Shown here: positions 6,685 through 43,244 of the stretch, one piece after another
Layout: the number at the start of each line of letters is the position of its first letter
Numbering within the stretch: position 1 is the first letter of the stretch
Assembly (NCBI GenBank): GCA_963813155.1
Contig: CAWEYG010000001.1
Span: 672,001 to 736,000, forward strand
Direction: 5' to 3'
Origin: an uncultured Acidobacteriota bacterium
GTDB lineage: Bacteria; Acidobacteriota; Thermoanaerobaculia; UBA5066; DATFVB01
DNA length: 64,000 nucleotides
Program-made: the position numbers and the translations under genes
Notes under the pieces: generated by a model
Database searches by the model: none
What the model was told of the DNA's origin: nothing
What the model saw: the letters and a program-made list of their open reading frames with translations, nothing else

Positions 6685-7356
6685 TCATCCGATCTCAGCC
6701 GCGTGGTGCTTCACGACCTTCGCCTGCGCGATGTAGATCGTGTCCTCCGCGATGTTCGTCGCCAGGTCGCCGACGCGCTCCAGGTTCTTCGACACCGAGA
6801 TCAGCTCCAGGCAGTACGAAATCAGCGACGGCGTCTCGGCCATGTAGGTCAGCAGCTCGCGGATGATCGACTGGTTCTTTTCGTCGAGAACGTCGTCCTT
6901 TCGGATGACGCTGTTGGCGAGCACGATGTCGCGGTTGACGAACGAATCGAGCGCGTCTTTGAGCATCGCCTTCGCGATTTCGGCCATGTGGGGAAGATCC
7001 ACGAACGGCTTGACCGGCTTCGGCTTCAGCGTTGCGATCCGCTCCGCTCCCTCCGCAATGTTGACGGCGTGGTCGCCGATCCGCTCGAGATCGTTGTTGA
7101 TCTTGAGCGCCCCGATCAGGAGACGCAGGTCGACGGCGACCGGCTGTTGGAGCGCGAAAAGCTGGATGGCTTCCTCTTCGATCTCGACTTCGGTCCGATC
7201 GATCAACTCGTCGGCCGCGATGACGCCGCGAGCCTGTATGGCTGAGCCTTCCGTCAACGCTTCCACCGCCGCCGCGATCTGCTTCTCCACCTCCGCGCCG
7301 AACAGGATCAGGCGGCGCCGCAGGTGCTCGAGTTGTTCCGCGAAATGTTCCTTCAT
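6685..7356 (-). CDS. phoU: phosphate signalling protein PhoU
   Basis: QQPVAVDLR, NDLERIGDHAVNIAE, NLERVGDLATNIAE repeats. Confidence 0.95.
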   Translation of the reverse strand: MKEHFAEQLEHLRRRLILFGAEVEKQIAAAVEALTEGSAIQARGVIAADELIDRTEVEIEEEAIQLFALQQPVAVDLRLLIGALKINNDLERIGDHAVNIAEGAERIATLKPKPVKPFVDLPHMAEIAKAMLKDALDSFVNRDIVLANSVIRKDDVLDEKNQSIIRELLTYMAETPSLISYCLELISVSKNLERVGDLATNIAEDTIYIAQAKVVKHHAAEIG

Positions 7357-8936
7357 CTTGACGATCCTCCGGCGGCACGGCGGGGCCGGGCCGCAGGCTC
7401 GCTCGCCCGAAAAACGGGCTTGCGGCCGAATATACGAACAAACAGTTTCGACTTGGCCGCAGCCGCCTCGAGCTCCGCTTCCGGATCCTCGAGCGCCACG
7501 ACCTCGAAAATGACCCTCTTCTGCCGAAGGCGGCAGACGACCGACTCGACGATCTGCCGATGGCCTCGGTCGAGCCCGTCGGCGACGCGCAGGATCGCGG
7601 CGAGCTTTTCCACCGACTGGCGGCGCCACGGGTCGAGGCTCTCCCACTCGGGATGCCTCTCTTTCGGGCGCCCGCCGCGGTGGTAGCGGGCGACCGCCGC
7701 GATCGTCGCGATCTCTTCGGACGAAAATCCCGTGAGGTCACCATGGGTGATGAGGTAGTAGGAGTGTTTGTGATGGCGCGGCATGCCAACCGAGGCGCCC
7801 GCGTCGTGAAGGATCGCGGCGAACCGGAGCCACTCGCGCTCCCTCTCGGTCATCTGGTGGAGCGAGTGAGTCGACTGGAAAATCTCGTCTGAAAGTTTTG
7901 CGACGCAGCGGGCGTGCATCCATTCGACGTTCCAGCGCCCGGCGAGGCGCTCGACGCTCTTTTCCCGCAGGTCCCGGGAAATCGGGGCGACGGAGGCTCC
8001 GCGCGAGCGGGCGAGCGAATCGAGCAGGATTCCCTCCCGCAGCCCCCGCTCCCCCGTCAGGATGTCATCCGCTCCGACCGCCTTCAGCAGCTCCGCGAGC
8101 AGCGCGCCTCCCGCCAGAGCGATGTCCCGGCGCTTCGGGTCGAGACCGGGCACCCGCAGCTTCTCCTTGAGCGTCGTTTTTCGAAGGACCTTCAGGACCT
8201 TTTTCAGGTCACTCCGGGAGAGGGTCCGATGGCCCGACGGGAAGATCTCGCGTCCCCGGATCGCCGCCTCGGAAACCATCGACATCGACTGGATCGTGCC
8301 CGACGTTCCCACGCAGGTCTTGAACCCCGCCTTCCGGATCTTTCGGGCGGCGGGCGCCACACGCCGCCGGACCGCCCGCTTCATGTCTCTCCAGTCGTCC
8401 CGGGAGACCGGATCGTGGCGCACGTATTTCTCGGACAGCCGCACGGCGCCGAGGGCGACCGATTCCGCGGACAACACCCGGTTTCCGTCCGAGACCACGA
8501 GCTCCGTCGAGCCTCCCCCGATGTCGATCAGAAGCAGCGGGTCGCACGAAGCCGGAAATTCGCTTCGAACGGCGAGGGTGATGAGCCGGGCTTCTTCCTC
8601 GCCCGAAATGACCTCGACTTCGACGTCGCAGCGGCGCCGCACGGCCTCGACGAACTCCGCCGCGTTCTCCGCTTCCCGGACCGCGCAGGTCGCGACGGCG
8701 CGGATCGCTTCGGCGCCGGAGGAGCGGGCGATCCGCGCCAGCCTTTCCACGGCCGCCGAGCCCCCTTCGATCGCCTCCGGCGAGAGCTTCCCTGTCGCGA
8801 ACGTCGCGTGGCCGAGCCGGATCATTTCCTTCTCGCGCACCACGGATTCCAGCGAGCCGTCGCGCGAGACGCGCGCGACGAGCAGCTTGACGCTGTTGCT
8901 CCCGATGTCGATCGACGCGAGTGTGCGGGTGTCCAT
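7353..8936 (-). CDS. ppx: exopolyphosphatase Ppx/GppA with HD domain
   Basis: IDIGSNS, ATCAVREA, SGEEEARL, DIGGGSTE, GLREG, LHDAG, RVADGLD. Confidence 0.93.
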   Translation of the reverse strand: MDTRTLASIDIGSNSVKLLVARVSRDGSLESVVREKEMIRLGHATFATGKLSPEAIEGGSAAVERLARIARSSGAEAIRAVATCAVREAENAAEFVEAVRRRCDVEVEVISGEEEARLITLAVRSEFPASCDPLLLIDIGGGSTELVVSDGNRVLSAESVALGAVRLSEKYVRHDPVSRDDWRDMKRAVRRRVAPAARKIRKAGFKTCVGTSGTIQSMSMVSEAAIRGREIFPSGHRTLSRSDLKKVLKVLRKTTLKEKLRVPGLDPKRRDIALAGGALLAELLKAVGADDILTGERGLREGILLDSLARSRGASVAPISRDLREKSVERLAGRWNVEWMHARCVAKLSDEIFQSTHSLHQMTEREREWLRFAAILHDAGASVGMPRHHKHSYYLITHGDLTGFSSEEIATIAAVARYHRGGRPKERHPEWESLDPWRRQSVEKLAAILRVADGLDRGHRQIVESVVCRLRQKRVIFEVVALEDPEAELEAAAAKSKLFVRIFGRKPVFRASEPAARPRRAAGGSSR

Positions 8937-8972
8937 CTCGGTTCGGATCAAATGCGGCCCGGGCGGTTTTCC

Positions 8973-9000
8973 CGTGAAGCCGGTGTAAACAAGGTGTGAA
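8973..9000 (-). promoter_or_regulatory. Pho box (three direct repeats, 11-bp period)
   Basis: Minus strand TTCACA-N5-TTTACA-N5-TTCACG just upstream of ppx-phoU; matches TT(A/C/T)ACA PhoP/PhoB-type repeats. Confidence 0.6.
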
Positions 9001-9010
9001 ACGGACCTCG

Positions 9011-11167
9011 TCACTCCGACCCGACCGCGCGTAAGCCGTGTCGCCTCAGGCGGTCGACCACCACCGCCTGCGAATCCCTTTCGGCTTCGCCTTCGGCGGG
9101 ACGACGCCGCCGGTAAACGCCCTGCGAGTCGAGGTCGCGCGCGCGGCAATTGTCCGCGAGGACCGGCTCGATCACTTCCCGGCGGAGCTTCTCGCGAAGC
9201 GACTCGTTCTGGATCGGGAAGAGGATCTCCACGCGCCGGTAAAAATTCCGCGGCATCCAGTCCGCGGACGAAAGGTAGAACTCCTGGCTCGGGGCGGCCC
9301 CGAAAACGAAGAGGCGCACGTGCTCGAGAAATCGCCCGACCACAGAGAAGACCCGGATGTTCTCGGACGTGCCGGGAATCCCCGGCCGGAGGCAGCAGAT
9401 TCCCCTCACGTTGAGATCGATCGGAACGCCTGCCTGGGACGCGCGGTACAGCGCGCGGATCACCGGCGGATCCGCCAGGGAATTGAGCTTCGCGAAGATG
9501 CCGGAGGGCTTTCTCTCGCGGGCGAGCGCGATCTGCTCGTCGATCTTGGCCAGCACCGTCTCCTGGAGCGTTCGCGGGGCGACGGCGATCCGCCGGTAGC
9601 GCGACTTCTTGGAAAATCCCGATAGCGAATTGAAGAGCTCCGAGGCGTCTTCGCCGATTTCCGGATCGGCCGTGAAGAGGTCGCAGTCCGTGTACACCTT
9701 CGCCGTCGAAGCGTTGTAGTTGCCGGTGGAGAGATGGACGTAGCGAACGAGCTTCTCTTTCTCCCGCCGGACGACGAGCGCCGCCTTCGCGTGGGTTTTC
9801 AGACCCACCGGCCCGTAGAAAACGTGCACGCCCGCCCGCTCCAGCGCCCGGGCCCACAGGATGTTGTTCTCCTCGTCGAACCGGGCCTTCAACTCGATCG
9901 ACACGGCCACCTGCTTGCCGTTCTCCGCGGCCTGGATGAGAGCCCGCACGATCTGGGAGTCCGCGCCGGTCCGGTAAAGTGTCATCTTGATCGCAAGCAC
10001 CTGCGGGTCCCGCGCCGCGCGATGCAGGAATTCGAGGACCGGAGTAAAGGAATCGTACGGGTGATGGAGAAGGACGTCTCCCGCGGCGATCACCTTGAAG
10101 ATGTCGGGCTCCGCGGCCAGCGCGGCGGGAATGGCGGGCACGAGGGGGGGATCGTGAAGATCCGGCCGCTCGAGGCCCGCGATCGACGCGAAGGCCGACA
10201 CGCCGAGGAACCCCGGGCTTTCGTAAACGTCCTCGGCGTCGATTTCGACCTTTTCGATGAGCGTCTGGCGCACCCGATCCGGAATTCCAGGCGCGACCTC
10301 CAGGCGCACGACGGCCCCGAACTTGCGCCGCCGGACTTCCCGGTCGACGACGGAGAGAAGGTCGTGCGCCTCCTCCTCGCGAATTTCCATGTCCATGTCG
10401 CGGGTCACGCGAAAGGGATGGCAGCCGACGATCTCCATGCCCGGAAAGAGGTCGTCCAGGTTAGCGGCGATCAGGGACTCCATCGGAAGGAAATTCTGCA
10501 CGGAGGAGTCCCGCGTTTCCCCGCCGATTTTCTCGAGGGCGTCGAGGGCAACGAAGCGTGGAAGGCTCTCGGGGACCTTGACGCGCGCGAACTTGCGTTC
10601 CCCCGTTTCCGGATCCTTGGCCTCAACTGCGAGCGAGAGGGAGAGGTTCGACAGGAACGGAAAGGGATGTCCCGGATCGACGGCGAGGGGCGTCAGGACC
10701 GGAAAAACGGCCTTCCGGAAATACGCGCGCGCGCGCCGCTTGACGTCCCCGTCGAGGGATTTCCAATCGTGGACCCGGATTCCGTTCTGATCGAGCAGCG
10801 GAAGCAGGTCGCCGGAAAGCGCCTCGGACGCGCGCGCGAGCTGCTGGCGTACGATCTGGCCGATCCGCGCGAGCTGCTCGCTGGCCGTCAGCCCGTCCGA
10901 GCTTCTCTCGCCGATCCGAGCCTCGAGTTGCTCGTGGAGGCCCGAGACCCGGATCATGAAGAACTCGTCGAGATTGCTGTAGAAGATCGCCAGGAACTTC
11001 ACCCGCTCGAGCAGAGGCCAGCGCGGGTCGAGAGCTTCGTCGAGAACCCGTTCGTTGAAGGCGAGCCAGGAAATCTCGCGGTTGAAATACAGGGAAGGGT
11101 CTTCGACGTCGATCGGAACGGCCGTGGGAGTCGAGTCGCGGCGGGCGGATTCTTTCTCTTCCGACAT
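9011..11167 (-). CDS. ppk1: polyphosphate kinase 1
   Basis: YFNREISWLAFNERVL, NLDEFFMIRV, HPFPFLSN, ELKARFDEENN, KTHAK, STGNYN, SADWMPRN. Confidence 0.97.
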   Translation of the reverse strand: MSEEKESARRDSTPTAVPIDVEDPSLYFNREISWLAFNERVLDEALDPRWPLLERVKFLAIFYSNLDEFFMIRVSGLHEQLEARIGERSSDGLTASEQLARIGQIVRQQLARASEALSGDLLPLLDQNGIRVHDWKSLDGDVKRRARAYFRKAVFPVLTPLAVDPGHPFPFLSNLSLSLAVEAKDPETGERKFARVKVPESLPRFVALDALEKIGGETRDSSVQNFLPMESLIAANLDDLFPGMEIVGCHPFRVTRDMDMEIREEEAHDLLSVVDREVRRRKFGAVVRLEVAPGIPDRVRQTLIEKVEIDAEDVYESPGFLGVSAFASIAGLERPDLHDPPLVPAIPAALAAEPDIFKVIAAGDVLLHHPYDSFTPVLEFLHRAARDPQVLAIKMTLYRTGADSQIVRALIQAAENGKQVAVSIELKARFDEENNILWARALERAGVHVFYGPVGLKTHAKAALVVRREKEKLVRYVHLSTGNYNASTAKVYTDCDLFTADPEIGEDASELFNSLSGFSKKSRYRRIAVAPRTLQETVLAKIDEQIALARERKPSGIFAKLNSLADPPVIRALYRASQAGVPIDLNVRGICCLRPGIPGTSENIRVFSVVGRFLEHVRLFVFGAAPSQEFYLSSADWMPRNFYRRVEILFPIQNESLREKLRREVIEPVLADNCRARDLDSQGVYRRRRPAEGEAERDSQAVVVDRLRRHGLRAVGSE

Positions 11168-11180: not shown

Positions 11181-12589
11181 CTACACCGCGGATGTTAAAT
11201 CCGGCGGAGCCTCCGAGGAGGTTTCCAGCCCCGCTTGCGTCCACGCGGCCATGCCGCCCACGACGTTCGTGATCCGGCGGAAACCCTTTCGTTCCAGTAT
11301 GCTGGACGCGATCGACGAGCGGTATCCACCCGCGCATACCGTCGCGACGGGCTCTCCGGCCTGCTCCCCCGGCGCGTCGCGCTCGAGCGCGTTCAAGGGC
11401 ACGTGCAGAGCCGACGGAATGTGGCCTTCTCCCCATTCCGCCGGGCGACGCACGTCGAGGACGCGCGGAGGCCCCGCTTCCCCGAGGCGGCGAGCGAGCT
11501 CCTCGACTCCGATCTGTTCGGTCGAGGCGAGCGGCCGCCCGGATTCGCTCCAGGCCTGAACGCCGCCCTCGAGAAAACCGGCGACGCGGTCCAATCCCAC
11601 CCGGGACAGGCGCGTGCGGGCCTCGGCGGCGCGATCGGGGTCTTCGGTCACGAGGATGATCGCGGCGTCGGCGGGGAGAACCGTTCCCGCCCAGGATGCG
11701 AACTGCCCGGAAAGCCCGATGTGAAACGACCCGGTAGGTGCCCCGTTCCGTACTCCCACGCGGAGCGCGTGTCGAGGACGACGGCGCCGCCTTCCCGCAT
11801 CTGCGCCGCCTCGCCGGACGGAATCGCCCGGACCGGCGGGAGCTCCCCGAGAAGCTCGGGGCCCTCGCGGTTGATCGCCGCGTCGCGGCCGAAGTACGCG
11901 GGCGCCTCGGGAAGATCCGTCGTCATCATCCGAACGAACTCCTGCCGGGCCATCGGCTGGAGCGCGTAGTTGAACCGCCTCTGTTCGCCGATCGTCGAGC
12001 TCGTTTCGCTGGAAATGTTGCGCCCGCACATCGACCCGGCGCCGTGCGCCGGATACACGCGAACGGAATCGGGAAGGGAGAGGAGCTTTTCGTGCAGCGA
12101 ATCGTAGAGCAGGCCCGCAAGCTCCTGCGGGCTCCGGACCGAGCCGAGGAGATCGGGACGGCCCACGTCGCCGATGAACAGGGTGTCCCCCGTCAGCACG
12201 GCGGCCGGCGATTCGTCCTCGGAGCCTTCGAAGACGAGGATAGAAACCGACTCGGGCGTGTGCCCGGGCGTCTCGAGGAACCGAAGCCGGACCGAGCCGA
12301 GGCGAACTTCGTCGCCCTCCCGCACGGGAACATGCTCGAACTTCGCGCCCGCCGCCGCGCCGAGGTAGATCTTCGCGCCCGTCCGCGCGGCGAGCTCGCG
12401 GTGGCCGGAGACGAAGTCCGCGTGCAGGTGAGTCTCGATGACGTGGCGGATCGTGAGCCCGTTCGCGCGAGCCTCCTCCAGGTATTCCTCCACGTCGCGG
12501 CGGGGGTCGACGACCGCGGCCTCGCCCCCGTCGCCGACCAGGTACGAGGCCTGCGCGAGACACGCGAGATAGAACTGGCGAAAGAACAT
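11181..12589 (-). CDS. MBL-fold hydrolase/persulfide dioxygenase fused to two rhodanese domains; frameshift at ~11730
   Basis: ETHLHADFVSG, TPGHTPES, GDVGRPDL, PAHGAGS; C-terminal CAGGYRS rhodanese loop in another frame; missing G in a GGG run. Confidence 0.87.
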
Positions 12590-12597
12590 CGGCGCCC

Positions 12598-13374
12598 TCA
12601 GCCCGCCAGAACCGAACCGCCGTTGATATTGACGATTTCGCCGTTGATCTGGCGGGAATAGTCGGAGCAGAGGAACGCGATCATCCCTCCGACGTCGTCG
12701 GCGGTCGCGACGCGCCGGGTCGGGATCGCCTGCTCGATCGCCTTGCGCTTGCGCCGGTTGCCGAGCTCCGCCTTCGACATCTCGGTGTCCACCCAACCGG
12801 GAGCGACCGCGTTGACCGTGATCCCGTCGGGCCCGAGCTCCGTCGCGAGCGACTTCGTGAAAGAGATGATCGCCCCCTTGGTCGCCGCGTAGTGCGAATG
12901 GAACGCCTCGCCCCGCTGGCCCGCCGTCGAGGAAACGTTGACGATCCGGCCGAATCCCTGCTTCTTGAAAACCGGGACCGCGAATTTCGTCATGAGGAAG
13001 GTCCCGCGCGCGTTGATCGCGAAGACTTCCTCCCAGTAGGCGGGCGAAATTTCCTCGATCTTGCCTCCGGGCCAGATTCCCGCGTTGTTGACGAGGATGT
13101 GGAGCCCCCCCAGGCGCGTGACCGCCTGCGCGACGGCGCGTCGGGCCTCGTGCTCGTCGGACACATCGGCCTTCAGGAGCAGCCCGCGGCCCCCCATCGC
13201 TTCGATCTGAGCCGCCGCGAGTTTGGCCTCGCGCTGGCGGCGGCGGTAGACGATCGCGACCTGGCAACCGGCCCGCGCGAGGAATTTCGCCGCCGACAGC
13301 CCGATGCCCCGGGTTCCCCCGGTGACGAGCGCCTTGCGGCCGGAAAGCTCGATCGTGAAAACGGATTGGGTCAT
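12598..13374 (-). CDS. SDR family oxidoreductase (FabG-like)
   Basis: TGGTRGIG, NNAG, YAATK, VAPGWVDT; ATGA overlap with upstream gene. Confidence 0.9.
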   Translation of the reverse strand: MTQSVFTIELSGRKALVTGGTRGIGLSAAKFLARAGCQVAIVYRRRQREAKLAAAQIEAMGGRGLLLKADVSDEHEARRAVAQAVTRLGGLHILVNNAGIWPGGKIEEISPAYWEEVFAINARGTFLMTKFAVPVFKKQGFGRIVNVSSTAGQRGEAFHSHYAATKGAIISFTKSLATELGPDGITVNAVAPGWVDTEMSKAELGNRRKRKAIEQAIPTRRVATADDVGGMIAFLCSDYSRQINGEIVNINGGSVLAG

Positions 13375-14510
13375 GGCGTCATCTCCCGCAGCTTCGCCAC
13401 CACGAGCCGGGCGATCCGGGCGCTCCCCTCCGGGAGATAGTGCTGAGGCGTGTTGTCGAACTCGCCGGGAGGGAGAGCGTTCCACAGGTCGAGCAGCGGA
13501 ATTCCTCGGCTCCGGCAATATTCCGCCAGCGCGGCGCGGTAACGGTCGTAGATCGTTCGGGCATAAAAGGAATTGTACTCGCGTCCCGAAAACGCTCCGG
13601 AAGCCGGAAAAATGGGGTCGTTGACGACGAGCAGGGCGACGCCCCGATCGGCGGCCATCCGCGCTCCCGCCTCAAGCGTCGCCCATCGCGAATTCGGCAT
13701 CGGGGGATCGTTCGCCCCGCGGTCCGCAAAAAGCGGCTCCGCGGGAAGCGGCATCGACCCGATCCAGGGTTTTCGGGGCATGTACGAGTCGCTCGGGTCG
13801 CCCGGAACGAGCGCGTCGAGGCCCCCGCGCGCGAGAAGAATCGCGAAATCGCGGTAACGGCCCCCTCCCTCGAGCCAGAGAGAATCGCGCCACCACGGAC
13901 GGTTCCCGCACCGCATCTGGCGGATTTCCCAGGTCGAAATGCCGTACTTCGCGGCGAGCTCGCACACATCGTCGTCGTTGGCCCGAAGGATGAGATGAAC
14001 GAAATGCCGAAAGGGCGGGGGGGTGTCTTCCGCCAGGTCGTAAAGGGTGACGAACCAGACGATCGCGTCGGGATCCCGGCGCAGAGCATGCTTCTCGACG
14101 ACGAGATCCTTGAGCGTGTTCGGCGTGTGGTAGCTGAGATTGTATGCCCGCACACGCTTCCCGCGGAGGGTTTCGCCGAGCCGGCCGATCTGGCCCGGGA
14201 TCGCGTCGCGAGAGGGCGAGAAGAGGTCGAAAGAGCCGGAGTCTCCGAGCACCGCGACGCGAAACTCGTCGGGAAGCTTCTTTCGGCCGATCTCGTGCGC
14301 GTCGAGCAGCGGCTCGAGGGGCCACATGACCTGGCTCGGATAGTCTCGAAGGATGTCGAGCCGGGACAGCGACGGCACGAGGTGGCGGTAGATCGAGAGA
14401 TTCTCGACCCTTCTCTCGACGTGGAGAGACGCTTGAAGTGCGTCCACGATCACGAGCAGGGCTACCGCCTTCGCGACGATTCGAATCACGGTGCTCGGCG
14501 ACCAGCTCAC
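13371..14510 (-). CDS. membrane-anchored SGNH-fold (DltD/AlgJ-like) acyltransferase
   Basis: N-terminal hydrophobic anchor, VAVLGDS block, AYNL block, C-terminal LLDLW...FDNTPQHY; GTGA overlap with ligase stop. Confidence 0.65.
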   Translation of the reverse strand: MSWSPSTVIRIVAKAVALLVIVDALQASLHVERRVENLSIYRHLVPSLSRLDILRDYPSQVMWPLEPLLDAHEIGRKKLPDEFRVAVLGDSGSFDLFSPSRDAIPGQIGRLGETLRGKRVRAYNLSYHTPNTLKDLVVEKHALRRDPDAIVWFVTLYDLAEDTPPPFRHFVHLILRANDDDVCELAAKYGISTWEIRQMRCGNRPWWRDSLWLEGGGRYRDFAILLARGGLDALVPGDPSDSYMPRKPWIGSMPLPAEPLFADRGANDPPMPNSRWATLEAGARMAADRGVALLVVNDPIFPASGAFSGREYNSFYARTIYDRYRAALAEYCRSRGIPLLDLWNALPPGEFDNTPQHYLPEGSARIARLVVAKLREMTP

Positions 14511-16201
14511 GTCGCGACCGGCCTGGCCGCGGCTCGCTCGGCGAGAAATTTCTCCTTGCACCGCGTCCGGGAGATCTTTCCGCTGGAAGTCTTGACGAGC
14601 CACATCGCGGGGAGGGCGGCAACCGTGCGCGCCACGCAATCGCTCTGCCGCGCGATCGCCTGCCTCACGGCGTCTTCGACCCTTCGCGGAGCATTCGAAT
14701 TCTCCCCTTCGTCCAATTCGAACAGCACGACGACGTCCTCGGTTCCCGCCTCTTCGTTTTCGACGCCGAACGCGACCGTTCTCCCGGGGTGAACGCCCTC
14801 GACGCCGTCCGCCACGAACTCGAGGTCCTGGGGATAGACGTTGTTCCCCCCGACGATGATCAGGTCTTTCTTTCGCCCCGTGACGAAGACTTCGCCGCCG
14901 GAAAGGTACCCGTAGTCGCCCGTGAGGTACCAGCCGTCGTGGAACGCCCTCGCGGTCAGATCCGGACGCCGGAAATATTCCGTCAGCATGCAGTCGCTTC
15001 GGATTGCGAGCTCCCCCACGCGCCGCTCGGAAACGGGTTCGAACGAAGGCCCGAGGACGGTCACGCTCGTGTTCGGGATCGGCGGACCGCACGAAACCAT
15101 CGTGACCGACGCGGAGCCCGGAGCCGGCTTCGCCGCAATCCCGTCGCGGTACAGGCGGGACCGGTCGACCTCCTCGAGGCGAACGGGCTGAGACGGGTCG
15201 CTCTGCGTGATCGCAAGCGTGTTTTCCGCCGTGCCGTACGAAGTCGTCAGCGACAGCGGGTCGAGACCGAGAGGCCGGAACCGCGCGAGGAACATCTCGT
15301 GGCTCGACGCCCGGACCGGCTCGGCGGTGTTGACGAACGCGCGCATCGACGAGAGATCGATCCCTTCCAGCTTCCGGTCGGGGATCTTTCGGGCGAGAAA
15401 GTTGTAAGCGAAATTCGGAAGCCAGCAGAGCGTGGACCGGTCGCGGCTGATCGCCTGAAGCAGCAGCGCGGGGTCGTGGACCCAGTCGATCGGCGAGAGG
15501 ATCGACAGGCGCAGGCCGCGCAGGAGCGGCTGCAGGAAACCCGCGACCAGGCCTCCGTCGTGGTACAGCGGCATCCAGTTCGCGACCCGGTCCGAATCTC
15601 TCACCGAAAGGGCGCGCCCGTAATTCTCGATCTGGCGGAACACCGCCCGGGAGGAGAGAGCGATTCCCTTTTGCAGGCCGGTCGAGCCCGACGAATGCTG
15701 CAGCACAGCGATCGCGTCGGCGTCCTCTCGAAGCTCGCGTCCGACGGCGCGCCGAGCGGCGGCCGGAGAGCAACGCTCGACGGCGACCATCACCGGACGG
15801 CTCGGCGCGTCCTTCGACAGTTTCCGCAGTGTTTCCTCCAGGTCGGCGTTGACGAGAATCGTTCGGGCGCCGCAGATCGCGAGGAGGGCGGCGACGCTCT
15901 TCTCGTAGTAATCGCGCGAGAGCTTTTCCGTCGGCCACGGAAAGATCGACGGGATCGCTCCCAGCAACAGAGGCGCGAGCCAGGCGGACAGGAGAGACGC
16001 GCCCGGTCGGACGATCACGACGACGACGTCTCCCTTGCGGACTCCGGCCCGTTCGAGGGCGTCCGCGTATCCGGAAGCGAGCAGAACGAGGTCGCCGTAG
16101 CTGACCGGCACGATGTCGGCGCCGGGGCCCCAGACGTTCGCGAAGGGACGGCCGGGCTCGGCCTCGGTCAGATCGAGGACGCGACCGAGGAGGCTCGTCA
16201 T
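14507..16201 (-). CDS. fatty acyl-AMP ligase (FAAL-like adenylating enzyme)
   Basis: QHSSGSTGLQKG, WMPLYHDGGL, SYGTAENT, TGDYG, GRKKDLIIVGGNNVYPQDLE, KTSSGKISR. Confidence 0.88.
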   Translation of the reverse strand: MTSLLGRVLDLTEAEPGRPFANVWGPGADIVPVSYGDLVLLASGYADALERAGVRKGDVVVVIVRPGASLLSAWLAPLLLGAIPSIFPWPTEKLSRDYYEKSVAALLAICGARTILVNADLEETLRKLSKDAPSRPVMVAVERCSPAAARRAVGRELREDADAIAVLQHSSGSTGLQKGIALSSRAVFRQIENYGRALSVRDSDRVANWMPLYHDGGLVAGFLQPLLRGLRLSILSPIDWVHDPALLLQAISRDRSTLCWLPNFAYNFLARKIPDRKLEGIDLSSMRAFVNTAEPVRASSHEMFLARFRPLGLDPLSLTTSYGTAENTLAITQSDPSQPVRLEEVDRSRLYRDGIAAKPAPGSASVTMVSCGPPIPNTSVTVLGPSFEPVSERRVGELAIRSDCMLTEYFRRPDLTARAFHDGWYLTGDYGYLSGGEVFVTGRKKDLIIVGGNNVYPQDLEFVADGVEGVHPGRTVAFGVENEEAGTEDVVVLFELDEGENSNAPRRVEDAVRQAIARQSDCVARTVAALPAMWLVKTSSGKISRTRCKEKFLAERAAARPVAT

Positions 16202-16443
16202 CGCGTCCGGGAGACGATGAGATCTCGAATCTGGCGGACGGTGTCGGCGCGGCCGGCGCCGAGATCCGACGCGTCGATCCTCGCGCCGAATTCGTTTTCC
16301 GCGAAGAGAGAGAGGTCCACGAGCCCGAAAGAGTCCACGACGCCCGACGAGACGAGGGGCTCGTCGTCGCCGATCTCCCGCGAGGCGTCCCGGAAGTAGG
16401 TTTCCGCGATGAAGGATTTCAGGCGCGAAAGCGGTTCGGCCAT
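16198..16443 (-). CDS. acyl carrier protein (DltC-like)
   Basis: 81 aa, acidic, LVSSGVVDSFGLV phosphopantetheine serine motif, ENEFG. Confidence 0.88.
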   Translation of the reverse strand: MAEPLSRLKSFIAETYFRDASREIGDDEPLVSSGVVDSFGLVDLSLFAENEFGARIDASDLGAGRADTVRQIRDLIVSRTR

Positions 16444-17976
16444 TCAGCGCGGCCCGGGAAGGACGATCGGCGCGGGCAAGGGCACCGGCTCGATTCCGAA
16501 GCTCGACGTCGTCCCGTTGAAGAATCCCTGCGCCTTCTGCCAGACGAGCGCCCCCACCTGCCGGCCGATCTCGCGGCCCCGCAGATCGCCGTCTCGGAAG
16601 TGGATCCCGCCCCAGCGCCGCGACATCCCCGCCGCATCCGCCGCGTCGGAGAACGTCGCGAACGAAAGCGTCACATCGTTCACCGGTCCGCACCCCGGCT
16701 CTCCTCGGAACGTGTCCTTCGGAATCGTGACTGAAACGCCGAGCGTGTCGTTGCCGGTGAACGAGCTCAGAACCTGCGCTCCCGCCGCGGAATAAATGCT
16801 GTGCCCGGAAAAGTACTCCGGAAACGGAGGCGTCACGATCGTCGCGAGCTGGTACGGCCGCCACTGAGAGGCTGGAATCGTCTGGGTGCCCTCGCAGGGC
16901 CCTGCCCACGCGGAGATGTTTCCGAGCACACCGACGGTAAAGAGGTAGTGAATCGCCGTGATGGGCCGGACCGAATCGTATTCCCGCTTCGCGTCCCACG
17001 CGGCGATCGACGCGTCGAGGAGGGCGTTGCCGAGCGCGAAGAACATCTTCACGTCCTGGGAAATCGTGTGCGCGTCGCGGCGCGAGACGTAGCCGGCGAA
17101 CAGGCACCAGTGCCCGGGGGGGAATTCCGACGACGGACCGTCCGCGAAATACTCGGCCGTCGCCTTCTGCTCGTCGGTCAACCCTGCCGACAGGTTGATG
17201 AGCTCGATCGCCTGCGCCAGATAGGCGGCGTGGTCGGTGGAGGAATATTGCGCCGGGGGCCCCGGGCGAAATTCGTCCCCGCTCGAAAGCGCGAACGGCG
17301 TGACGAGGCCCCACTGCGGCGTCGTATATTTCTGGACGACGGAGCCGCCGTTTCCGTCGGAGACCAGGAGCGGTTGCCAGCGGTTCGGATCCACGACCGC
17401 GCCGGGTTCCGGCGGATTGACGGCGACGTACCCCGTGTAGTCCGAATACGCGCCCGGGTGCAGGTCGCCGAGCTGGTTGGAGCCGTCCCCGTGCCGGTAC
17501 TCGAGCACCGCGTCGGCCGCCGTGTTCCCGATTCCGTCGGGAGACTGAAGATCGCGCGACGAGTCCTCGCGGTCGTAGCCGAGCGATCCCATCAGCGCGT
17601 CGAACTCCGAAGCCTGCGCGGGGAAGAGGTCGACGAGCGCCCGGTATGCCGCGAAGCTCAGCGCCTCTGCGCGATTCGCGTCGGTCCGCTCCTCCGCGGG
17701 CCGCCGCCATGCCCGGTGCGGACGCGTCGGGACCGCGACGTCGTCGTACGCCGCCCACGCGTCGAAGATCGCCGAGTGGAGAACGGCGATCGACCGCGCG
17801 ACGATGGTCGGGCCCGGCTTCGTCTCGCGAACCGCCTGCAGCAGCGCCTCGTTCCACTTCAGAACGGCATTGTCGCCCGGTTGCGGTCCAAGGTTCGTTG
17901 CGCCCCGGAGAGGGACGAGGAACGCGGTCAACGAGAGGATCGAGAGCGGAAGAGCGCGGAATTTCTTGAGTGGCAT
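16444..17976 (-). CDS. secreted vanadium-dependent haloperoxidase / PAP2 superfamily protein
   Basis: Signal peptide; KREYDSVRP, PPFPEYFSGHS and SRRWGGIHF vanadate/phosphate-binding motifs. Confidence 0.85.
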   Translation of the reverse strand: MPLKKFRALPLSILSLTAFLVPLRGATNLGPQPGDNAVLKWNEALLQAVRETKPGPTIVARSIAVLHSAIFDAWAAYDDVAVPTRPHRAWRRPAEERTDANRAEALSFAAYRALVDLFPAQASEFDALMGSLGYDREDSSRDLQSPDGIGNTAADAVLEYRHGDGSNQLGDLHPGAYSDYTGYVAVNPPEPGAVVDPNRWQPLLVSDGNGGSVVQKYTTPQWGLVTPFALSSGDEFRPGPPAQYSSTDHAAYLAQAIELINLSAGLTDEQKATAEYFADGPSSEFPPGHWCLFAGYVSRRDAHTISQDVKMFFALGNALLDASIAAWDAKREYDSVRPITAIHYLFTVGVLGNISAWAGPCEGTQTIPASQWRPYQLATIVTPPFPEYFSGHSIYSAAGAQVLSSFTGNDTLGVSVTIPKDTFRGEPGCGPVNDVTLSFATFSDAADAAGMSRRWGGIHFRDGDLRGREIGRQVGALVWQKAQGFFNGTTSSFGIEPVPLPAPIVLPGPR

Positions 17977-18047
17977 CAATGTTTTACCTTTCAAGCCATC
18001 GGAAGTATAGGATAGACTTCTTATCTCCCGGTTCAAGAGGAGGCCCC

Positions 18048-19175
18048 ATGGCGACTGCGGATCCGATTCCGGTTCCTCGGAAGAAGGACTGGATCAACAT
18101 TTCGTTCCTGACCCTGACACCGATCATCGGAGTCGTGGGGACGGCGCTGTACACCTGGAAGTACGGATTCGAGCTGTGGATGCCGATCCTGTGCGTCGGG
18201 ATGTTCGTCGTCGTCGGTCTTTCGGTCTGCGCCGGCTACCACCGGTTCTTCTCGCACAAGAGCTATGAGTGCAGCCCGGCCGTTCAGGCCCTGTACGCTT
18301 TCTTCGGAGCGATGGCCGCGCAGAACTCGATCCTCTGCTGGGCTTCGGACCACCGCGTCCACCACCACTACGTCGATCGCGACTGGGATCCGTACAACAT
18401 CCGGCGCGGCTTCTGGTGGGCGCACTTCTTCTGGATCTTCTACAAAGCGCCCGACGGGAGAACGCGGGACAACGTCGCCGATCTTCAAAAGAATCCCGTC
18501 GTCATGTGGCAGTACCGCTGGAACAAGTTCCTCACCCTGCTCGGCGTCTTCGGCATTCCGCTCGGCGTGGGCTTCCTCTTCGGGAGACCCGTGGCCGGCC
18601 TGCTGTGGGGAGGGTTCCTGAGAATCGCGCTGACGCATCACTCGACGTTTCTCGTCAACTCGATGGCCCACAGCGTCGGCAAACCCACGTTCGCCGCCGA
18701 AGTGTCCGCCCGGGACAACTGGGTCCTCGCCCTCGCGACGTTCGGAGAGGGGTACCACAGCTTTCATCACAAATTTCCGGCGGATTTCCGCAACGGGGTC
18801 CGCTGGTACGACTGGGACCCCGCGAAGTGGCTCATCTGGGCGCTGCGGTCCGTCGGGCTCGCGACGAAGCTCCGGAGCACGGCCGCTCCGGTCGTCGAGC
18901 AGGCGCGGATGCACGCGGCCGTACAGAAGCTCGAACACAAACTCGACGCAATTCCCACCAATCTCGGGGACGAGATCCGTGCAAGAATCATGCGCGCGAA
19001 GGAATCCGTCGAGCACGCGGTCGCTCTCTGGAAGCAGCACACGGAAGAGCGAGCATCGGGAGCGTCGAAGACCTGGCGCGAAACCCGCCGCAAGTGCCAG
19101 GCGCGACTGAGGCAGGCGCGAGTCGAATGGCGCGAGGCCGTCGACATGCTCGCGGGGCTTCCCGAAGCCGCCTAG
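18048..19175 (+). CDS. delta-9-type membrane fatty acid desaturase with C-terminal helical extension
   Basis: His boxes HRFFSH, HRVHH, GEGYHSFHH; GAGGAGG RBS. Confidence 0.92.
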   Translation: MATADPIPVPRKKDWINISFLTLTPIIGVVGTALYTWKYGFELWMPILCVGMFVVVGLSVCAGYHRFFSHKSYECSPAVQALYAFFGAMAAQNSILCWASDHRVHHHYVDRDWDPYNIRRGFWWAHFFWIFYKAPDGRTRDNVADLQKNPVVMWQYRWNKFLTLLGVFGIPLGVGFLFGRPVAGLLWGGFLRIALTHHSTFLVNSMAHSVGKPTFAAEVSARDNWVLALATFGEGYHSFHHKFPADFRNGVRWYDWDPAKWLIWALRSVGLATKLRSTAAPVVEQARMHAAVQKLEHKLDAIPTNLGDEIRARIMRAKESVEHAVALWKQHTEERASGASKTWRETRRKCQARLRQARVEWREAVDMLAGLPEAA

Positions 19176-19221
19176 ACGGCGGCGCCGAAGCCGCCTGAAC
19201 GGCGGCGCGGGAGCCGCCGAG

Positions 19222-20433
19222 CTACCTTCCGAAGAGCTTCGCCAGGATCGCTCCGCTCTCCCGTAGCGATGTTCCGTAGAAGAATACCCAGCCGAGCATC
19301 ACGTACTGAAACGTGAGGGCAACCGAGGCCGCCCGGCCCGGCAGCCCGCGGGGAACGGCGGGCGCCCCCCGCCGAAAGCGGGTCCACCTCCAGTGCGCGA
19401 AGAGGCCGATCGCGTGCCACAGTCCCCAGGCCGCGAACGCGGCGTCGAGCCCGTGCCACAGGCCGATCGCGACCATCGTCACGGCCTGGCAGACGAAGAC
19501 CGCCGCCGTCTCCGGAAGCCCCGGAGACCGGCGTCGCAGGGCTCGTCCCAGCGGAAAGAACACGTAATCGCGCATCCAGCTCGACAGCGTGATGTGCCAG
19601 CTCTGCCAGAAGCGGGTGAGATTCCGCTGGAGGTAGGGAAACTCGAAGTTCTCCGGAATCGAGAAGCCGACGAGCTTCGCGGTCCCGATCGCGATGTCGG
19701 AGTAGCCCGCGAAATCGAAGAAAAGCTGAAAGCCGAAAACGTAGAGAGAGATCCACATCCGCGGAGTCGATAACCCGGCGTGCGGCAGGTCCAGGGGAAG
19801 GCCGCCGAGAAAGTCGGCGAGCGCGAACTTCTTGAAGATTCCGACGAGAACGCGGCGGCCGCCCTCCGCGATCTCGCCGAACTTCGGCTTCGGATAGTCC
19901 TCGTTGCGGCGGAAACTCGGAAAGCGGTCGATCGGACCCGCGACGAGCGTCGACGGAAACAGCACGTAGAGGAGCAGTTCGGAAAAGCGCATTTCGGGAA
20001 AACCGGGGCGCCGCGCTTCGACGAGAACGTGGATCAGCCGGAACAGAACGTAGGAGGCGCCGAGCCACGCTCCGAGCGAAAGCAGGTACTTGCCGGGAAT
20101 ATGGAGGGCCGCGTACGTCGCGCGCTGCAGCCCGGACCACTTCAGGCCCAGGAGAACGAGCAGCAGCGCGGCCACGCCGAGCCGGCAGTTCCGTTCGCGG
20201 CGCTTCGACGTCGCGGCCCGATAGACGGCGAAGACGAGGCCGATCGAGAGGAGAAAGAGCAGCGCCGAGAGGCGGCGCGCCGGAACGTGGCGCAGGGACA
20301 GGAGGACCCCCAGAACGACCGTCGCGCAGAGGAGGATCGCCCGCCGAGCGCCTGCGCCGCCCGCGAAAAAGTAGAGCGCCACCGCGGCTGTCGCCGCGAG
20401 CAGGACCGGCGCCGGCGAGCTGAAGACCTCCAT
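19222..20433 (-). CDS. MBOAT family O-acyltransferase (DltB/AlgI-like)
   Basis: LVAGPIDR, FDFAGYSDIAIG, ENFEFPY, FWQSWHITLSSW, IGLWHG catalytic His. Confidence 0.93.
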   Translation of the reverse strand: MEVFSSPAPVLLAATAAVALYFFAGGAGARRAILLCATVVLGVLLSLRHVPARRLSALLFLLSIGLVFAVYRAATSKRRERNCRLGVAALLLVLLGLKWSGLQRATYAALHIPGKYLLSLGAWLGASYVLFRLIHVLVEARRPGFPEMRFSELLLYVLFPSTLVAGPIDRFPSFRRNEDYPKPKFGEIAEGGRRVLVGIFKKFALADFLGGLPLDLPHAGLSTPRMWISLYVFGFQLFFDFAGYSDIAIGTAKLVGFSIPENFEFPYLQRNLTRFWQSWHITLSSWMRDYVFFPLGRALRRRSPGLPETAAVFVCQAVTMVAIGLWHGLDAAFAAWGLWHAIGLFAHWRWTRFRRGAPAVPRGLPGRAASVALTFQYVMLGWVFFYGTSLRESGAILAKLFGR

Positions 20434-20577
20434 TCAAAATGCCTGATAGATGAACGGGATTGGCTGGCCTCGCCAGAAGATCGCGATCGCCGCCAGCAGC
20501 AGAAAGAGCAGGAACGCCGCGACGTTCTCCCGACGCCACCACCGGACCGTTTCGGACGCCGGGGCCGCTTCGCTCAT
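20434..20577 (-). CDS. DltX-like acyl-shuttle microprotein (47 aa)
   Basis: MSEAAPASETVRWWRRENVAAFLLFLLLAAIAIFWRGQPIPFIYQAF*: single TM and C-terminal FIYxxF; ATGA overlap with GT2 stop; its stop abuts the MBOAT ATG. Confidence 0.8.
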   Translation of the reverse strand: MSEAAPASETVRWWRRENVAAFLLFLLLAAIAIFWRGQPIPFIYQAF

Positions 20578-21467
20578 CCCGCGATCTCCCGCGCGACAAT
20601 TCTTCTCCCGAAGAGGACGCGCCACGACGCCGCGAGCAATCCGAGAAAGAAAAACAACCTGCGCCGGCGGGCCCGGCCGTGCGCGACGGAGCGGCAGTAC
20701 TGCCAGTATTTCCGGCGCAGCGCCTCGCGCAATCGCCCTTTCGCGACCGCCCGGATCGTGAAAAAGAGCTCGTTCTTGTAAAACCCGAAATTGTCGTAGA
20801 TGTGGGTCTTCACCCGGCTTCCTCCGTACGGCGACGCGAGGTGGACGAGGACGGCCCGCGGCTCGTAATAGATCCGCTGGCCGGCCGCCGCCATCCGAAG
20901 CGAAAGGTCGCTCTCTTCCCGAAACGAATTTCCCCTGTAGCGCTCGTCGAACCCGCCGACTCTCAACGCGTCCTCCACGCGCAGCGCGCAATTGCCGCCC
21001 GGAAAGGCGTTCGTGAAACCGGGCTCGGTCGCGGTGAACATTCCGTGCGTGATCGCGAACTCGTCGAACCAGAGGACGTCCCTTCCAACGGGAAATCCCT
21101 CCTGCAGGACACGGCCTCCGACGGCGCTCAGCTCCGGGCGGCTGCGGAAGGATTCCAGAAAAATCTCCACCAGGTCATTGCTCATCTTCACGTCGTCGTC
21201 GACGAAAACGAGGTAAGGAGCCCGCGCGCGCCGCAGCGCAAAGTTGCGCGCCGCCGTCAGCGACGGAGGGCCCGTTCGAAAGTAGCGAAAACGACGATCC
21301 CGGATGCCGTCGAGGGCGAGCCGTGTCTCGTGCCGGTGCGACCGCGTTTGATCGACGACCAGGAGCTCGAGATTCCCGTGACTCTGGGCGAGCACGTCCC
21401 GGATCGTCGCGAGCAACTCTTCTTCACGGTTGTAGGTGGGAATCGCGACCGTGATGTCGGGATCCAT
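20574..21467 (-). CDS. GT2 family glycosyltransferase
   Basis: VAIPTYNR, ARNFAL, FVDDD, GGFDE, REESDL. Confidence 0.9.
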   Translation of the reverse strand: MDPDITVAIPTYNREEELLATIRDVLAQSHGNLELLVVDQTRSHRHETRLALDGIRDRRFRYFRTGPPSLTAARNFALRRARAPYLVFVDDDVKMSNDLVEIFLESFRSRPELSAVGGRVLQEGFPVGRDVLWFDEFAITHGMFTATEPGFTNAFPGGNCALRVEDALRVGGFDERYRGNSFREESDLSLRMAAAGQRIYYEPRAVLVHLASPYGGSRVKTHIYDNFGFYKNELFFTIRAVAKGRLREALRRKYWQYCRSVAHGRARRRRLFFFLGLLAASWRVLFGRRIVAREIAG

Positions 21468-21473
21468 CGGCCG

Positions 21474-22749
21474 CTACAGCATCCTGCCGACAAGCGCCGC
21501 GAGCGTATCGGGCAGGGGCACGGACTCCTTCGTCGCATCATCGGCTTCTGCGCACGCGATGAGGACGCCCTGCAGCTCCGCGGCCGAGAATTTCGCGGCT
21601 CGCTGGTAGCACTTGTACCAGAGGTAGGGGCTCCCCTCCAGGAGAGACGAGGAAAAGGGCCCCACGGGCTCGGAGAGGCGCGGGTGAACCCGGGCCGTAT
21701 ACGTTCCGTACGTGATCGAGGGATCGATCTTCGTTCGCGTCTCGTCGCAGCGAGCCTTGACGATCAGGAGCCTTCGCACTTCCGAGAAGAACATGGAGAA
21801 AAATCCGCGGAGGGGATCGTCTCCTTTGAGCTCGCGATCCCCCGCCCGAAGGGCGCGGCCCGAAAGAACCCGGCCGAGCCGGTGGAAGGTCTCGGCGCGA
21901 TCGCGCCGTCCGAGAGAGTCGAAGAACGCGTACAGATCCTCGGAACGCCCGTCGGCGACGAGGGCCTCCACGTCGCCGGACGCGCACCTTTCCGCCCGAT
22001 TCCGCCCACGCGAGCACCTTTTCGAGCTCGGAGTCGAAGCGCCGGGGGTCGGCTTCGGTGAGCCGCAGAAGCGCCTCGACGGCGGCGGGATCGAGAGCCA
22101 CGTCCTTCTCCGCCGCGAGCTTCTTCGCCCGCGACGCGAGGAAACGGGCAAATTCCTCCGGCTTGGAGGAGACGTCGTTGATCGTGCCATGCTTTCGGAA
22201 AGCCTGATAGAGAGCGGAAGTTTTCGGGGGATCGACGGCGCGGGCGAGCAGAACCGTGCCCGCGAGACCTCTTTCGAGGTGCTCGAGCACGGCCGAAGCC
22301 GCGGGCGCCGCGTCGCCGATCGGTCCGGGGAGGGCCCGAAGGATCTCCAGCAGAGTCTCGGCCGCCTCGGGACGCCGCGCCTTCTGGGCCGCGGCCGCGG
22401 CGGCCTCCTCCGGCGAGCCCTGGATTCTCAGGGCGGAAAGCAGCGCGCGAGTCTTCTTGAACGCCTCCCGCCGGCCCGAAGGCGTGTCCTTGATCCACGC
22501 TTCGACGGCTTCCTCGACGAGCGAACCCGGAGACTCCCGGCCGAAGAGGCCCGAAAGGTCGGCTTCGACGAGCCGTTTCTCGGCGAAAAGGGAGCCGTGG
22601 GTGAGCGCGATCGGGAGCCGATCGGCAAGGTCCTCGTCGGAGATTCTCTCGACTTCAGTCTCCGGGGAGGCGAGCGATGCGCGGATTTCCTCGGCGGCTT
22701 CGTCCACGAAAAACTCGTGGCTGCCGGTCACGAGAATCGCCTGACTCAG
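21474..22749 (-). CDS. holA: DNA polymerase III delta subunit (HolA-like); frameshift at ~21985; start uncertain
   Basis: ILVTGSHEFFVDE N-terminus, LDPAAVEALL...DSELEKVLAW, C-terminal AEADDATK. Confidence 0.65.
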
Positions 22750-23135
22750 TCGAGGAGCCCTTTTTCCGACAGTTCCATGCAGTCGAGGCAATACGGCGTC
22801 CAGGGAACCGCTTCGAGGCGCTTCTCCATCAGCGGGCTCGAGCAGTGGGTACACGTGCCGTAGATGCCTTCATCGATCCGGACAAGAGCCTGCTCGATCA
22901 GCTGAACGAGTGTCCGTTCGGTGTCGCTCAGGGAAAAGAGGAATTCCTTCGTGTAGGAAGACGTCGCCTTGTCGGCGATGTCCTGCGTCGACTCGTCCGA
23001 GTTCTCCTGACCCGCGTCCTTGTTCTTGACGAGCTCCTGCGAAATCTCGTCTTTCTTCGCGAGGAGGGAGCGACGGTACTTTTCCACGTCTTTCTTCGAA
23101 ACCCGCACGCTGGATGACTTGGCAGAAGTTGGCAT
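22746..23135 (-). CDS. dksA: DksA/TraR C4-type zinc finger protein
   Basis: DIADKA, EGIYGTCTHC...RLEAVPWTPYCLDC. Confidence 0.88.
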   Translation of the reverse strand: MPTSAKSSSVRVSKKDVEKYRRSLLAKKDEISQELVKNKDAGQENSDESTQDIADKATSSYTKEFLFSLSDTERTLVQLIEQALVRIDEGIYGTCTHCSSPLMEKRLEAVPWTPYCLDCMELSEKGLLD

Positions 23136-35591: not shown

Positions 35592-35603
35592 TCCTGCCTC
35601 CCC

Positions 35604-36728: not shown

Positions 36729-36800
36729 TGAAACAAACTCCCTCGAAACAGTCTAGACCCGGAATCGCGAGAAATCAAATCACCGGGTGGCCCGTATCCC

Positions 36801-38678
<1,878 letters not shown>

Positions 38679-40996: not shown

Positions 40997-41019
40997 TTCC
41001 GAAGGATAACGGATAACCG

Positions 41020-43226: not shown

Positions 43227-43244
43227 GTCTGTTTCGCTCCAAAA

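Follow-up and report, generated by a model that had tools for sequence, protein, structure and literature searches.

Bacterial systems that pair a membrane acyltransferase of the MBOAT family with an extracytoplasmic SGNH protein fall into two kinds. In the available excerpts of a 2025 account, only Dlt has a carrier protein together with a DltX-type microprotein, the other MBOAT-SGNH systems using acyl-CoA and a Tyr motif fused to the MBOAT (PMC12148441). DltX is described there as an 'acyl shuttle' of N-in, C-out topology that carries D-alanine on the Tyr of an FXYXXF motif, and for systems of the PatAB, Alg and Wss type the excerpts place the motif on two extra helices of the MBOAT itself, with neither microprotein nor carrier (PMC12148441). 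Here we report on a locus of an uncultured Acidobacteriota bacterium, contained in a stretch of 64,000 nucleotides (contig CAWEYG010000001.1, positions 672,001 to 736,000; the window, below, is this whole stretch). Together with its relatives, the locus appears to break that division, encoding what would be a relay that uses both a carrier and a microprotein and has a fatty-acid ligase to drive it. It suggests a relative of Dlt in which the amino-acid enzyme has been swapped for a fatty-acid one, and an undescribed attachment of fatty chains outside the membrane.

Gene starts in the window were fixed from third-position G+C, translations and start-codon contexts; raw lists of open reading frames (ORFs) are full of spurious frames because the window has about 65% G+C. 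The features of the locus are as follows.

20574-21467, minus strand: GT2 glycosyltransferase, 297 amino acids, PF00535
20434-20577, minus strand: microprotein ending FIYQAF, 47 amino acids
19222-20433, minus strand: DltB-type MBOAT, 403 amino acids
19168-19226, no strand: G+C-rich hairpin between the desaturase and MBOAT genes, a possible two-way terminator
18048-19175, plus strand: membrane fatty-acid desaturase, 375 amino acids
16444-17976 (alternative start 18036), minus strand: gene resembling vanadium haloperoxidases (VHPO-like), 510 amino acids, DUF6851 and VCPO_2nd
16198-16443, minus strand: stand-alone acyl carrier protein (ACP), 81 amino acids
14507-16201, minus strand: predicted fatty acyl-AMP ligase (FAAL), 564 amino acids
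13371-14510, minus strand: SGNH protein, 379 amino acids, GTG start
12598-13374, minus strand: FabG-like SDR, 258 amino acids

An earlier note, made from the sequence alone, had already placed these nine genes, in two blocks within which they overlap by 4 bases or abut, and its coordinates were borne out. ATGA or GTGA overlaps of 4 bases join GT2 to microprotein, carrier to ligase, ligase to SGNH protein and SGNH protein to SDR, and zero-base abutments join microprotein to MBOAT and VHPO-like gene to carrier. The desaturase, called convergent in that note, is so with respect to the MBOAT block, which it meets tail to tail across a 46-bp gap, but not with respect to the VHPO-carrier-ligase block, from which it diverges (head to head with the VHPO-like gene, 71 bp).

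All five roles of the Dlt pathway, as the earlier note had claimed, are represented at the locus. Like it, the DltXABCD system of Firmicutes comprises an adenylating enzyme, a small carrier, an MBOAT lacking a fused Tyr motif, a single-pass F-x-Y-x-x-F microprotein and an N-terminally anchored SGNH protein. The two differ in that the ligase of the locus appears to be a FAAL and not DltA, the carrier is no DltC equivalog, the microprotein belongs to a separate family (RENL...[WF]IYQ[GA]F), the SGNH protein does not match DltD in sequence and the hosts are Chloroflexota and Acidobacteriota. Lipoteichoic acid is an unlikely acceptor because of these hosts, the latter of which make lipopolysaccharide (LPS). 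With PatA/PatB, AlgI/AlgJ/AlgF/AlgX and WssH/WssI the locus shares an MBOAT, an extracytoplasmic SGNH protein and a Tyr hexapeptide shuttle; unlike them, it has the motif on a separate peptide of 47 amino acids and encodes a carrier and a ligase alongside.

The components constitute one conserved module. This was assessed by scanning one genome per species (185,579 species) with a profile of the SGNH protein, which yielded at least 517 relatives, and by comparing the nine proteins of the locus with every ORF in the best 80 loci, the microprotein being sought by its C-terminal motif. Four of the 80 loci are from Acidobacteriota (one labelled Thermoanaerobaculia), one is unclassified and the rest are from Chloroflexota, mostly Anaerolineae; L041 comes from an Anaerolinea thermophila assembly. 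MBOAT was found in 72, the microprotein in 64, the carrier in 46, the FAAL in 44 and all four in 40. For the 53 loci with at least 4 kb of upstream and 5 kb of downstream sequence (full-flank loci), the corresponding figures are 49, 46, 33, 34 and 33, and in those 33 loci all four partners lie on one strand. The two blocks of the window thus co-occur across two phyla, as the earlier note had anticipated. Moreover, the SGNH gene, which in the window lies inside the FAAL operon, adjoins the MBOAT gene in 72 of the 80 loci, and therefore both blocks are parts of a single module. Three findings that the earlier note had named as contrary to its proposal, namely a ligase grouping with CoA ligases, an SGNH protein lacking a Ser/His site and blocks that never occur together, were not made, since the ligase groups with FAALs, the Ser and His are invariant and the blocks do co-occur.

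Gene order differs between the phyla. The usual Chloroflexota arrangement, on one strand, is NTF2-like lipoprotein, microprotein, MBOAT, SGNH protein, second SGNH-like lipoprotein, carrier and FAAL. In the four Acidobacteriota loci (L001 to L004) it is rsfS, holA, (GT2), peptide, MBOAT, desaturase, VHPO, carrier, FAAL, SGNH, SDR and MBL-rhodanese, with protein identities of 59-96% across the arrangement and SGNH identity down to 64%. A quick unrooted tree of SGNH proteins (72 rows; nine loci with short matches were excluded, L004 among them) joins the window to L001-L003 with support of 100, the nearest neighbour being one Anaerolineae sequence with support of 99.

Two lipoprotein families accompany the Chloroflexota loci. 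The NTF2-like lipoprotein, of about 125 amino acids, is encoded upstream of the microprotein, directly so in most cases, at L014:7959-8372, L028:6702-7091 and in 38 other loci; it has a lipobox Cys and four further invariant Cys residues, and ends ...EDGEWKWCGE or ...GGEWRMCGYR. Its model, with a predicted local distance difference test score (pLDDT) of 89.2, folds as an NTF2-like cone, for which the nearest match is the PBP2a N-terminal domain, and the protein may bind hydrophobic cargo or the acceptor. The second SGNH-like lipoprotein is encoded between the SGNH and carrier genes in 47 loci (for example L014:11120-12133, L049:11061-12041 and L028:7185-8399), in up to four tandem copies (L018). 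Alginate acetylation uses AlgJ plus AlgX, and the occurrence of a second SGNH-like protein resembles this pair. Neither lipoprotein family was found when sought in the window, the only match being of 10.4 bits (E = 0.01).

Model and structure comparisons support the grouping, proposed in the earlier note, of the ligase with FAALs rather than with CoA ligases or DltA. The best NCBIfam model is the FAAL PRK09192 at 345.4 bits (its cut-off of 600 is not reached), compared to 109.9 bits for the generic amino-acid adenylation domain model; FAAL heads the best 25 of the 100 NCBIfam families shown, all of them ligases of fatty acids or other acyl groups, and no DltA model is among those 25. The Pfam AMP-binding model scores 154.3 bits. 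Among PDB chains, the best match is E. coli FAAL (PDB code 3pbk) at 223.4 bits, with other FAALs next, whereas CoA ligases score below 95 bits (FadD13, 94.4 bits). Motifs SSGSTGLQK, HDGGL, YGTAE, GDYG and SSGK are present. According to the available part of a study of the E. coli enzyme, EcFAAL, the CoA pocket is there blocked by W224, M231 and F279, and the FAAL-specific helix spans T252-R258 (PMC8460268). When these hallmarks were mapped onto the window ligase through the 3pbk profile alignment, W224 and F279 proved to be retained and the helix region to be ungapped.

Characterised FAALs, in the excerpts available of a further paper, all activate fatty acids and load holo-ACP (PMC12820801), and by analogy the ligase would be expected to pass its acyl group to holo-ACP, not to CoA. 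A suitable partner is encoded beside it, the two genes being tied by their 4-base overlap in the window and by ACP-FAAL adjacency in 44-46 of the 80 loci. The carrier scores 20.8 bits with Pfam PP-binding, exactly at the cut-off, and the Ser of its DSF motif is kept in at least 90% of 49 aligned orthologues. On the DltC equivalog model of NCBIfam it reaches 19.9 bits against a cut-off of 68, so that it is, as judged from its sequence, a carrier protein but not demonstrably DltC. Its best NCBIfam match, 'ACP for OlsHI', a model that belongs to the planctomycete ornithine-lipid pathway according to the part of the source available (PMC12493201), was rejected as an identification: the score of 39.7 bits is far under the cut-off of 130 and there is no GH3-like gene. 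Homologous ligases are likewise found beside small ACPs in known FAAL-ACP pairs (E. coli FAAL 3pbk, FadD32), of polyketide, lipopeptide and mycobacterial lipid pathways. In contrast to these, the locus has no polyketide synthase (PKS), nonribosomal peptide synthetase (NRPS) or condensing enzyme downstream, and its genomic partner is the MBOAT-SGNH pair; scans with Pfam and NCBIfam revealed no PKS, NRPS or ketosynthase gene within the cluster.

The MBOAT (Pfam MBOAT, 62.8 bits) has DltB as its only named relative. Its sole NCBIfam match is DltB TIGR04091, at 213.7 bits over positions 33-378 of 380, and the only PDB chains matched at E <= 0.01 are of DltB (6bug, 153.8 bits, E = 5.1e-44; 8jem, 153.6 bits). 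Since the NCBIfam score is under the equivalog cut-off of 375, the protein may be described as DltB-type, homologous to DltB over its full length but by the NCBI criterion no orthologue. In an alignment of 41 sequences, H280, in the WHxxLS motif, and H327 are invariant, the former aligning with the DltB histidine. The C-terminus, ...AKLFGR, lacks an FxYxxF motif. Prediction of a complex of MBOAT and microprotein, both supplied as alignments, gave a score of 0.02 relative to a mark of 0.32, a result that counts neither for nor against binding.

The motif missing from the MBOAT is found at the end of the microprotein. This has a basic N-terminus, a single hydrophobic stretch at residues 15-33 and a tail of about 12 residues, from which a topology of N-in, C-out may be predicted. 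Over 40 aligned copies the consensus reads M...LFSRENL.ALLLCL.LIAL.I.TAD.AP.WIYQGF, with Y44 and F47 invariant and E17, N18, I43, Q45 and G46 kept in at least 90%. In 64 of the 80 loci a small ORF ending [FWY][IVLF]Y.[GAS]F precedes the MBOAT gene on its own strand, immediately so in most. Among 1.84 billion proteins, a profile of the microprotein recovered 210 cluster representatives at E <= 0.001, the [FWY]xYxx[FYW] C-terminus being present in 146 of the best 150 of them. This conservation, before MBOAT and among the 210 representatives, shows that the ORF is not a chance product of DNA of 65% G+C. The relatives, where the source names them, are 'hypothetical protein'; no Pfam or NCBIfam family matches even at E <= 10, and the profile matched solved structures only at chance level (E > 2). 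The microprotein belongs to a distinct conserved family of DltX design, either converged upon it or diverged beyond the reach of hidden Markov models. We propose that it shuttles acyl groups, which it would carry on Tyr44. As to the shuttle role claimed in the earlier note, the DltX architecture, the FIYQAF motif and the invariant Tyr all stand, but membership of the DltX family by sequence does not.

The SGNH protein bears a hydrophobic stretch at residues 4-22, which would serve as an N-terminal anchor, and matches Lipase_GDSL_2 at 25.7 bits, under the Pfam cut-off. The block I Ser, block III Asn and block V His are present: an alignment of 42 SGNH sequences shows no variation at G89, S91, D341, W343 and H357, while D90 and N124 are kept in at least 90%, so that the Ser/His site expected by the earlier note is indeed there. 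The AlphaFold model (pLDDT 92.0) comprises an N-terminal helix, an SGNH core and a large helical insertion, and a Foldseek search with it returned small SGNH hydrolases and four DltD structures, DltD alone being comparable in size and matched over the full length. A word-indexed search found 78 relatives, of which those named are all 'hypothetical' or generic esterase; a protein atlas places it in the company of unnamed clusters from Chloroflexota, of which one bears the automatic name 'AlgX/AlgJ SGNH-like'. By analogy with described systems we propose that this is the membrane-anchored final acyltransferase. Anchor, fold and Ser/His site agree with the transferase role assigned to it earlier; by sequence, it is not of the DltD family, and no Pfam DltD match was seen at E <= 10.

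The reading that we favour, with moderate confidence, is that the locus encodes a carrier-dependent transmembrane acyl relay, Dlt-like in design and primed by a fatty acyl-AMP ligase. Its steps are drawn from family membership and gene order, by analogy with the Dlt and PatAB mechanisms, and this applies to the acyl cargo, the membrane transfer and the acceptor alike. The FAAL would adenylate a free fatty acid and load it onto the phosphopantetheine arm of the dedicated carrier, and the acyl-carrier would then dock on the cytoplasmic face of the DltB-type MBOAT. Through H280 of the latter the acyl group would be passed across the membrane to Tyr44, in the FIYQAF tail of the microprotein on the outer face. 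From there, the anchored SGNH protein would take it on Ser91 and deliver it to an extracytoplasmic acceptor, for which a surface glycan, a lipid and a protein are candidates.

Several observations weigh against this relay. The NCBIfam matches of all core proteins are under the curated cut-offs. In 19 of the 53 full-flank loci, neither FAAL nor carrier is encoded within 10 kb; either the genes lie elsewhere in the genome or the MBOAT-SGNH pair uses another donor. The position of EcFAAL Met231 is occupied by Gly at residue 216 of the window ligase, within HDGGL, a motif shared by 3 of 44 locus sequences scored, its closest relatives; the Met is kept (HDMGL or WLPLYHDMGL) in 40 of 44 Chloroflexota ligase orthologues, whose WLPLYHDMGL aligns as the counterpart of WLPFYHDMGL in E. 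coli FAAL. Pfam DltX was matched by none of the 40 aligned microproteins and by none of 66 further representatives (66 of 150). In the SGNH protein, the Asp of the block V DxxH is not conserved (consensus T-N-T-P-x-H); its profile matched no PDB chain, DltD included, at E <= 1, and superposition of the model on DltD is modest, with template modelling (TM) scores of 0.40-0.45 and a root mean square deviation of about 10 Å.

The alternative that survives best keeps the same relay but has as its acceptor an exported protein (O- or N-lipidation) or a membrane lipid (glycolipid, lipid A) and not a glycan. We regard it as unlikely, though deserving of attention. The Chloroflexota operon would suit it, with an NTF2-like lipoprotein at 40 loci, extra SGNH-like lipoproteins at 47 and no glycan-synthesis genes, as would the absence of GT2 from two of the four Acidobacteriota relatives and the production of LPS by the organism of the window. 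On the other hand, translation of GT2 and of the microprotein is coupled in the window, the two phyla share no conserved candidate for an acceptor protein and the characterised bacterial MBOAT-SGNH systems, so far as the available excerpts of the 2025 account extend, all acylate glycopolymers (PMC12148441).

Less probable still are two separate systems: O-acylation by MBOAT, microprotein and SGNH protein from a soluble donor such as acetyl-CoA, in the manner of PatAB or AlgIJ, beside a FAAL-carrier-VHPO-SDR set that makes an unrelated lipid or natural product. The blocks of the window are indeed separate operons with the desaturase between them, the 19 full-flank loci mentioned above have the MBOAT-SGNH pair without FAAL or carrier, and, according to the excerpts cited earlier, most known FAALs belong to polyketide and lipopeptide pathways (PMC12820801). 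Yet the SGNH gene straddles the supposed boundary, lying inside the FAAL operon with 4-base overlaps in the window and adjoining MBOAT in 72 of 80 loci, and the four partners share a strand in 33 of the 53 full-flank loci. The cluster contains no PKS, NRPS or ketosynthase gene. Moreover, the MBOAT is of the carrier-using DltB type and lacks the fused Tyr motif of MBOATs that use acyl-CoA, as these are portrayed in the excerpts (PMC12148441). That the locus is a divergent Dlt operon for aminoacyl (D-alanine-like) esterification, its ligase merely FAAL-looking, is highly improbable: MBOAT, carrier, Tyr-motif microprotein and SGNH protein do fill Dlt roles and DltB is the MBOAT's only named relative, but the ligase scores 345.4 bits with the FAAL model against 109.9 with that for amino-acid adenylation, its top PDB matches are FAALs, its Chloroflexota orthologues carry the WLPLYHDMGL counterpart of the E. 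coli FAAL motif, and the carrier attains 19.9 bits on a DltC model with a cut-off of 68.

Were the favoured FAAL-primed relay to carry a fatty chain, it would be the first MBOAT-SGNH pathway of bacteria with a lipid as cargo in place of acetate or D-alanine, and it could explain anchoring or waterproofing of surface polymers in Chloroflexota, whose envelope is poorly understood, and in some Acidobacteriota. Eukaryotic MBOATs lipidate Hedgehog, Wnt and ghrelin. A bacterial counterpart of such lipidation, in which FAAL, carrier, MBOAT, microprotein and SGNH protein form a dedicated route, widespread in Anaerolineae, for placing long chains on a surface polymer or protein outside the cytoplasmic membrane, with a desaturase and an exported haloperoxidase modifying the chain in Thermoanaerobaculia-like Acidobacteriota, is a bolder proposal that we put forward tentatively, as a possibility. 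No description of a FAAL-driven MBOAT-SGNH system, or of an MBOAT-FAAL pairing, was found by full-text searches of the literature, an earlier mention in the primary DltX paper or in supplements being possible. The conserved and previously unnamed microprotein family offers, in Tyr44 of a peptide of 47 amino acids, a short, invariant and testable handle.

In the Acidobacteriota lineage the module is split into two operons and four extra genes have been acquired, for a GT2 glycosyltransferase, a desaturase, an exported VHPO-family enzyme and a FabG-like reductase. GT2 (Pfam Glycos_transf_2, 71.9 bits; DDD at residues 90-92) has HpsN as its best NCBIfam match, at 155.6 bits far under the cut-off of 425, and is present in L001 and L002, absent from L003 and L004. 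The desaturase (Pfam FA_desaturase, 66.1 bits) has three hydrophobic stretches and His boxes HRFFSH at 65, HRVHH at 102 and HSFHH at 237, and occupies the same place and orientation in L001-L004. The SDR, encoded last in its operon and present in L001-L004 only, matches adh_short_C2 at 224.2 bits and the NCBIfam FabG subfamily PRK12826.1-2 at 233.9 bits, above the cut-off of 222.

The VHPO-like gene, which heads the carrier-ligase operon and is again present in L001-L004, encodes a protein with a signal-peptide-like N-terminus and matches to Pfam DUF6851 (142.4 bits) and VCPO_2nd (93.3 bits). Its PDB matches, of 153-258 bits, include the VHPO 9ptr (258.4 bits), 9l8x, NapH3 and NapH1, and residues of the vanadate/phosphate site are kept as K330x6RP, FSGH at 389 and SRx5H at 452-459. 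It is predicted to be an exported protein of the vanadium-haloperoxidase family, either a haloperoxidase or a phosphatase. NapH-type haloperoxidases sit in meroterpenoid clusters. The protein of the locus is like the bacterial NapH type in these scores and in keeping Kx6RP, SGH and SRx5H, but its context is an envelope acylation locus. In the unclassified locus L007, a VHPO-like gene (L007:8033-8728, 131 bits to that of the window) lies beside the SGNH gene on the opposite strand; L007 has no MBOAT, and nothing but this gene hints at a VHPO link beyond the Acidobacteriota lineage.

When the window proteins were searched against all locus ORFs, GT2, desaturase, VHPO and SDR were absent from the roughly 75 Chloroflexota loci. 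The earlier suggestions that the acyl group might be halogenated, unsaturated or reduced and that GT2 might build a glycan as the acceptor consequently fared poorly: with the accessory genes confined to the four Acidobacteriota relatives, and GT2 to two of these, lineage-specific adjacency is their only ground. The four products may nevertheless tailor the acyl chain or the acceptor, and the coupled GT2 hints at a glycan acceptor in this lineage.

The hairpin between the desaturase and MBOAT genes consists of two near-repeats of GCCGCCT.(G)AACGGCGGCGC. It has a minimum free energy of -34.4 kcal/mol (z = -3.36), none of 200 shuffles folding as well, and is a possible two-way terminator of the two genes. 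The intrinsic-terminator consensus scan of positions 12000-23000 missed it because it has no T run; that scan returned eight terminator-like sites, compared to a shuffle mean of 9.2, and a sigma-70 promoter consensus scan of the same region gave no promoters and nothing above the shuffled expectation.

On one side of the locus are an MBL-rhodanese gene and ppk, on the other holA, rsfS and obg, all of them housekeeping genes. The holA gene, for DNA polymerase III delta (21477-22825, minus strand), is spread over three frames with breaks near 22747 and 21980. Since it is one uninterrupted ORF in L002, L003 and L004, the breaks are probably assembly indel errors rather than the mark of a pseudogene, which urges caution with other genes of the window. 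The ppk product is 96% identical to that of L001. It belongs to a polyphosphate module (1672-2505 and 7353-11167) comprising a CHAD-domain protein, a Ppx/GppA phosphatase and polyphosphate kinase 1.

The statement of the earlier note that this genome encodes LPS and lipid A genes is correct: a Kdo transferase, a lipid A acyltransferase, two GT9 heptosyltransferases and a PfkB-type kinase lie at 39492-47414. Its framing of the acylation system as that of an LPS producer is, however, incidental, since most loci are from Chloroflexota, class Anaerolineae, the main home of the system. An HNH endonuclease gene (42036-42683), encoded on the opposite strand, breaks up the LPS core and lipid A set. 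Elsewhere in the window there are two type II secretion or type IV pilus gene sets, at 34389-38678 and 48674-58697, with T2SSE ATPases, T2SSF platform proteins, secretins and a prepilin-type protein, and a PilS-like kinase with a sigma-54 response regulator is encoded at 31344-34382.

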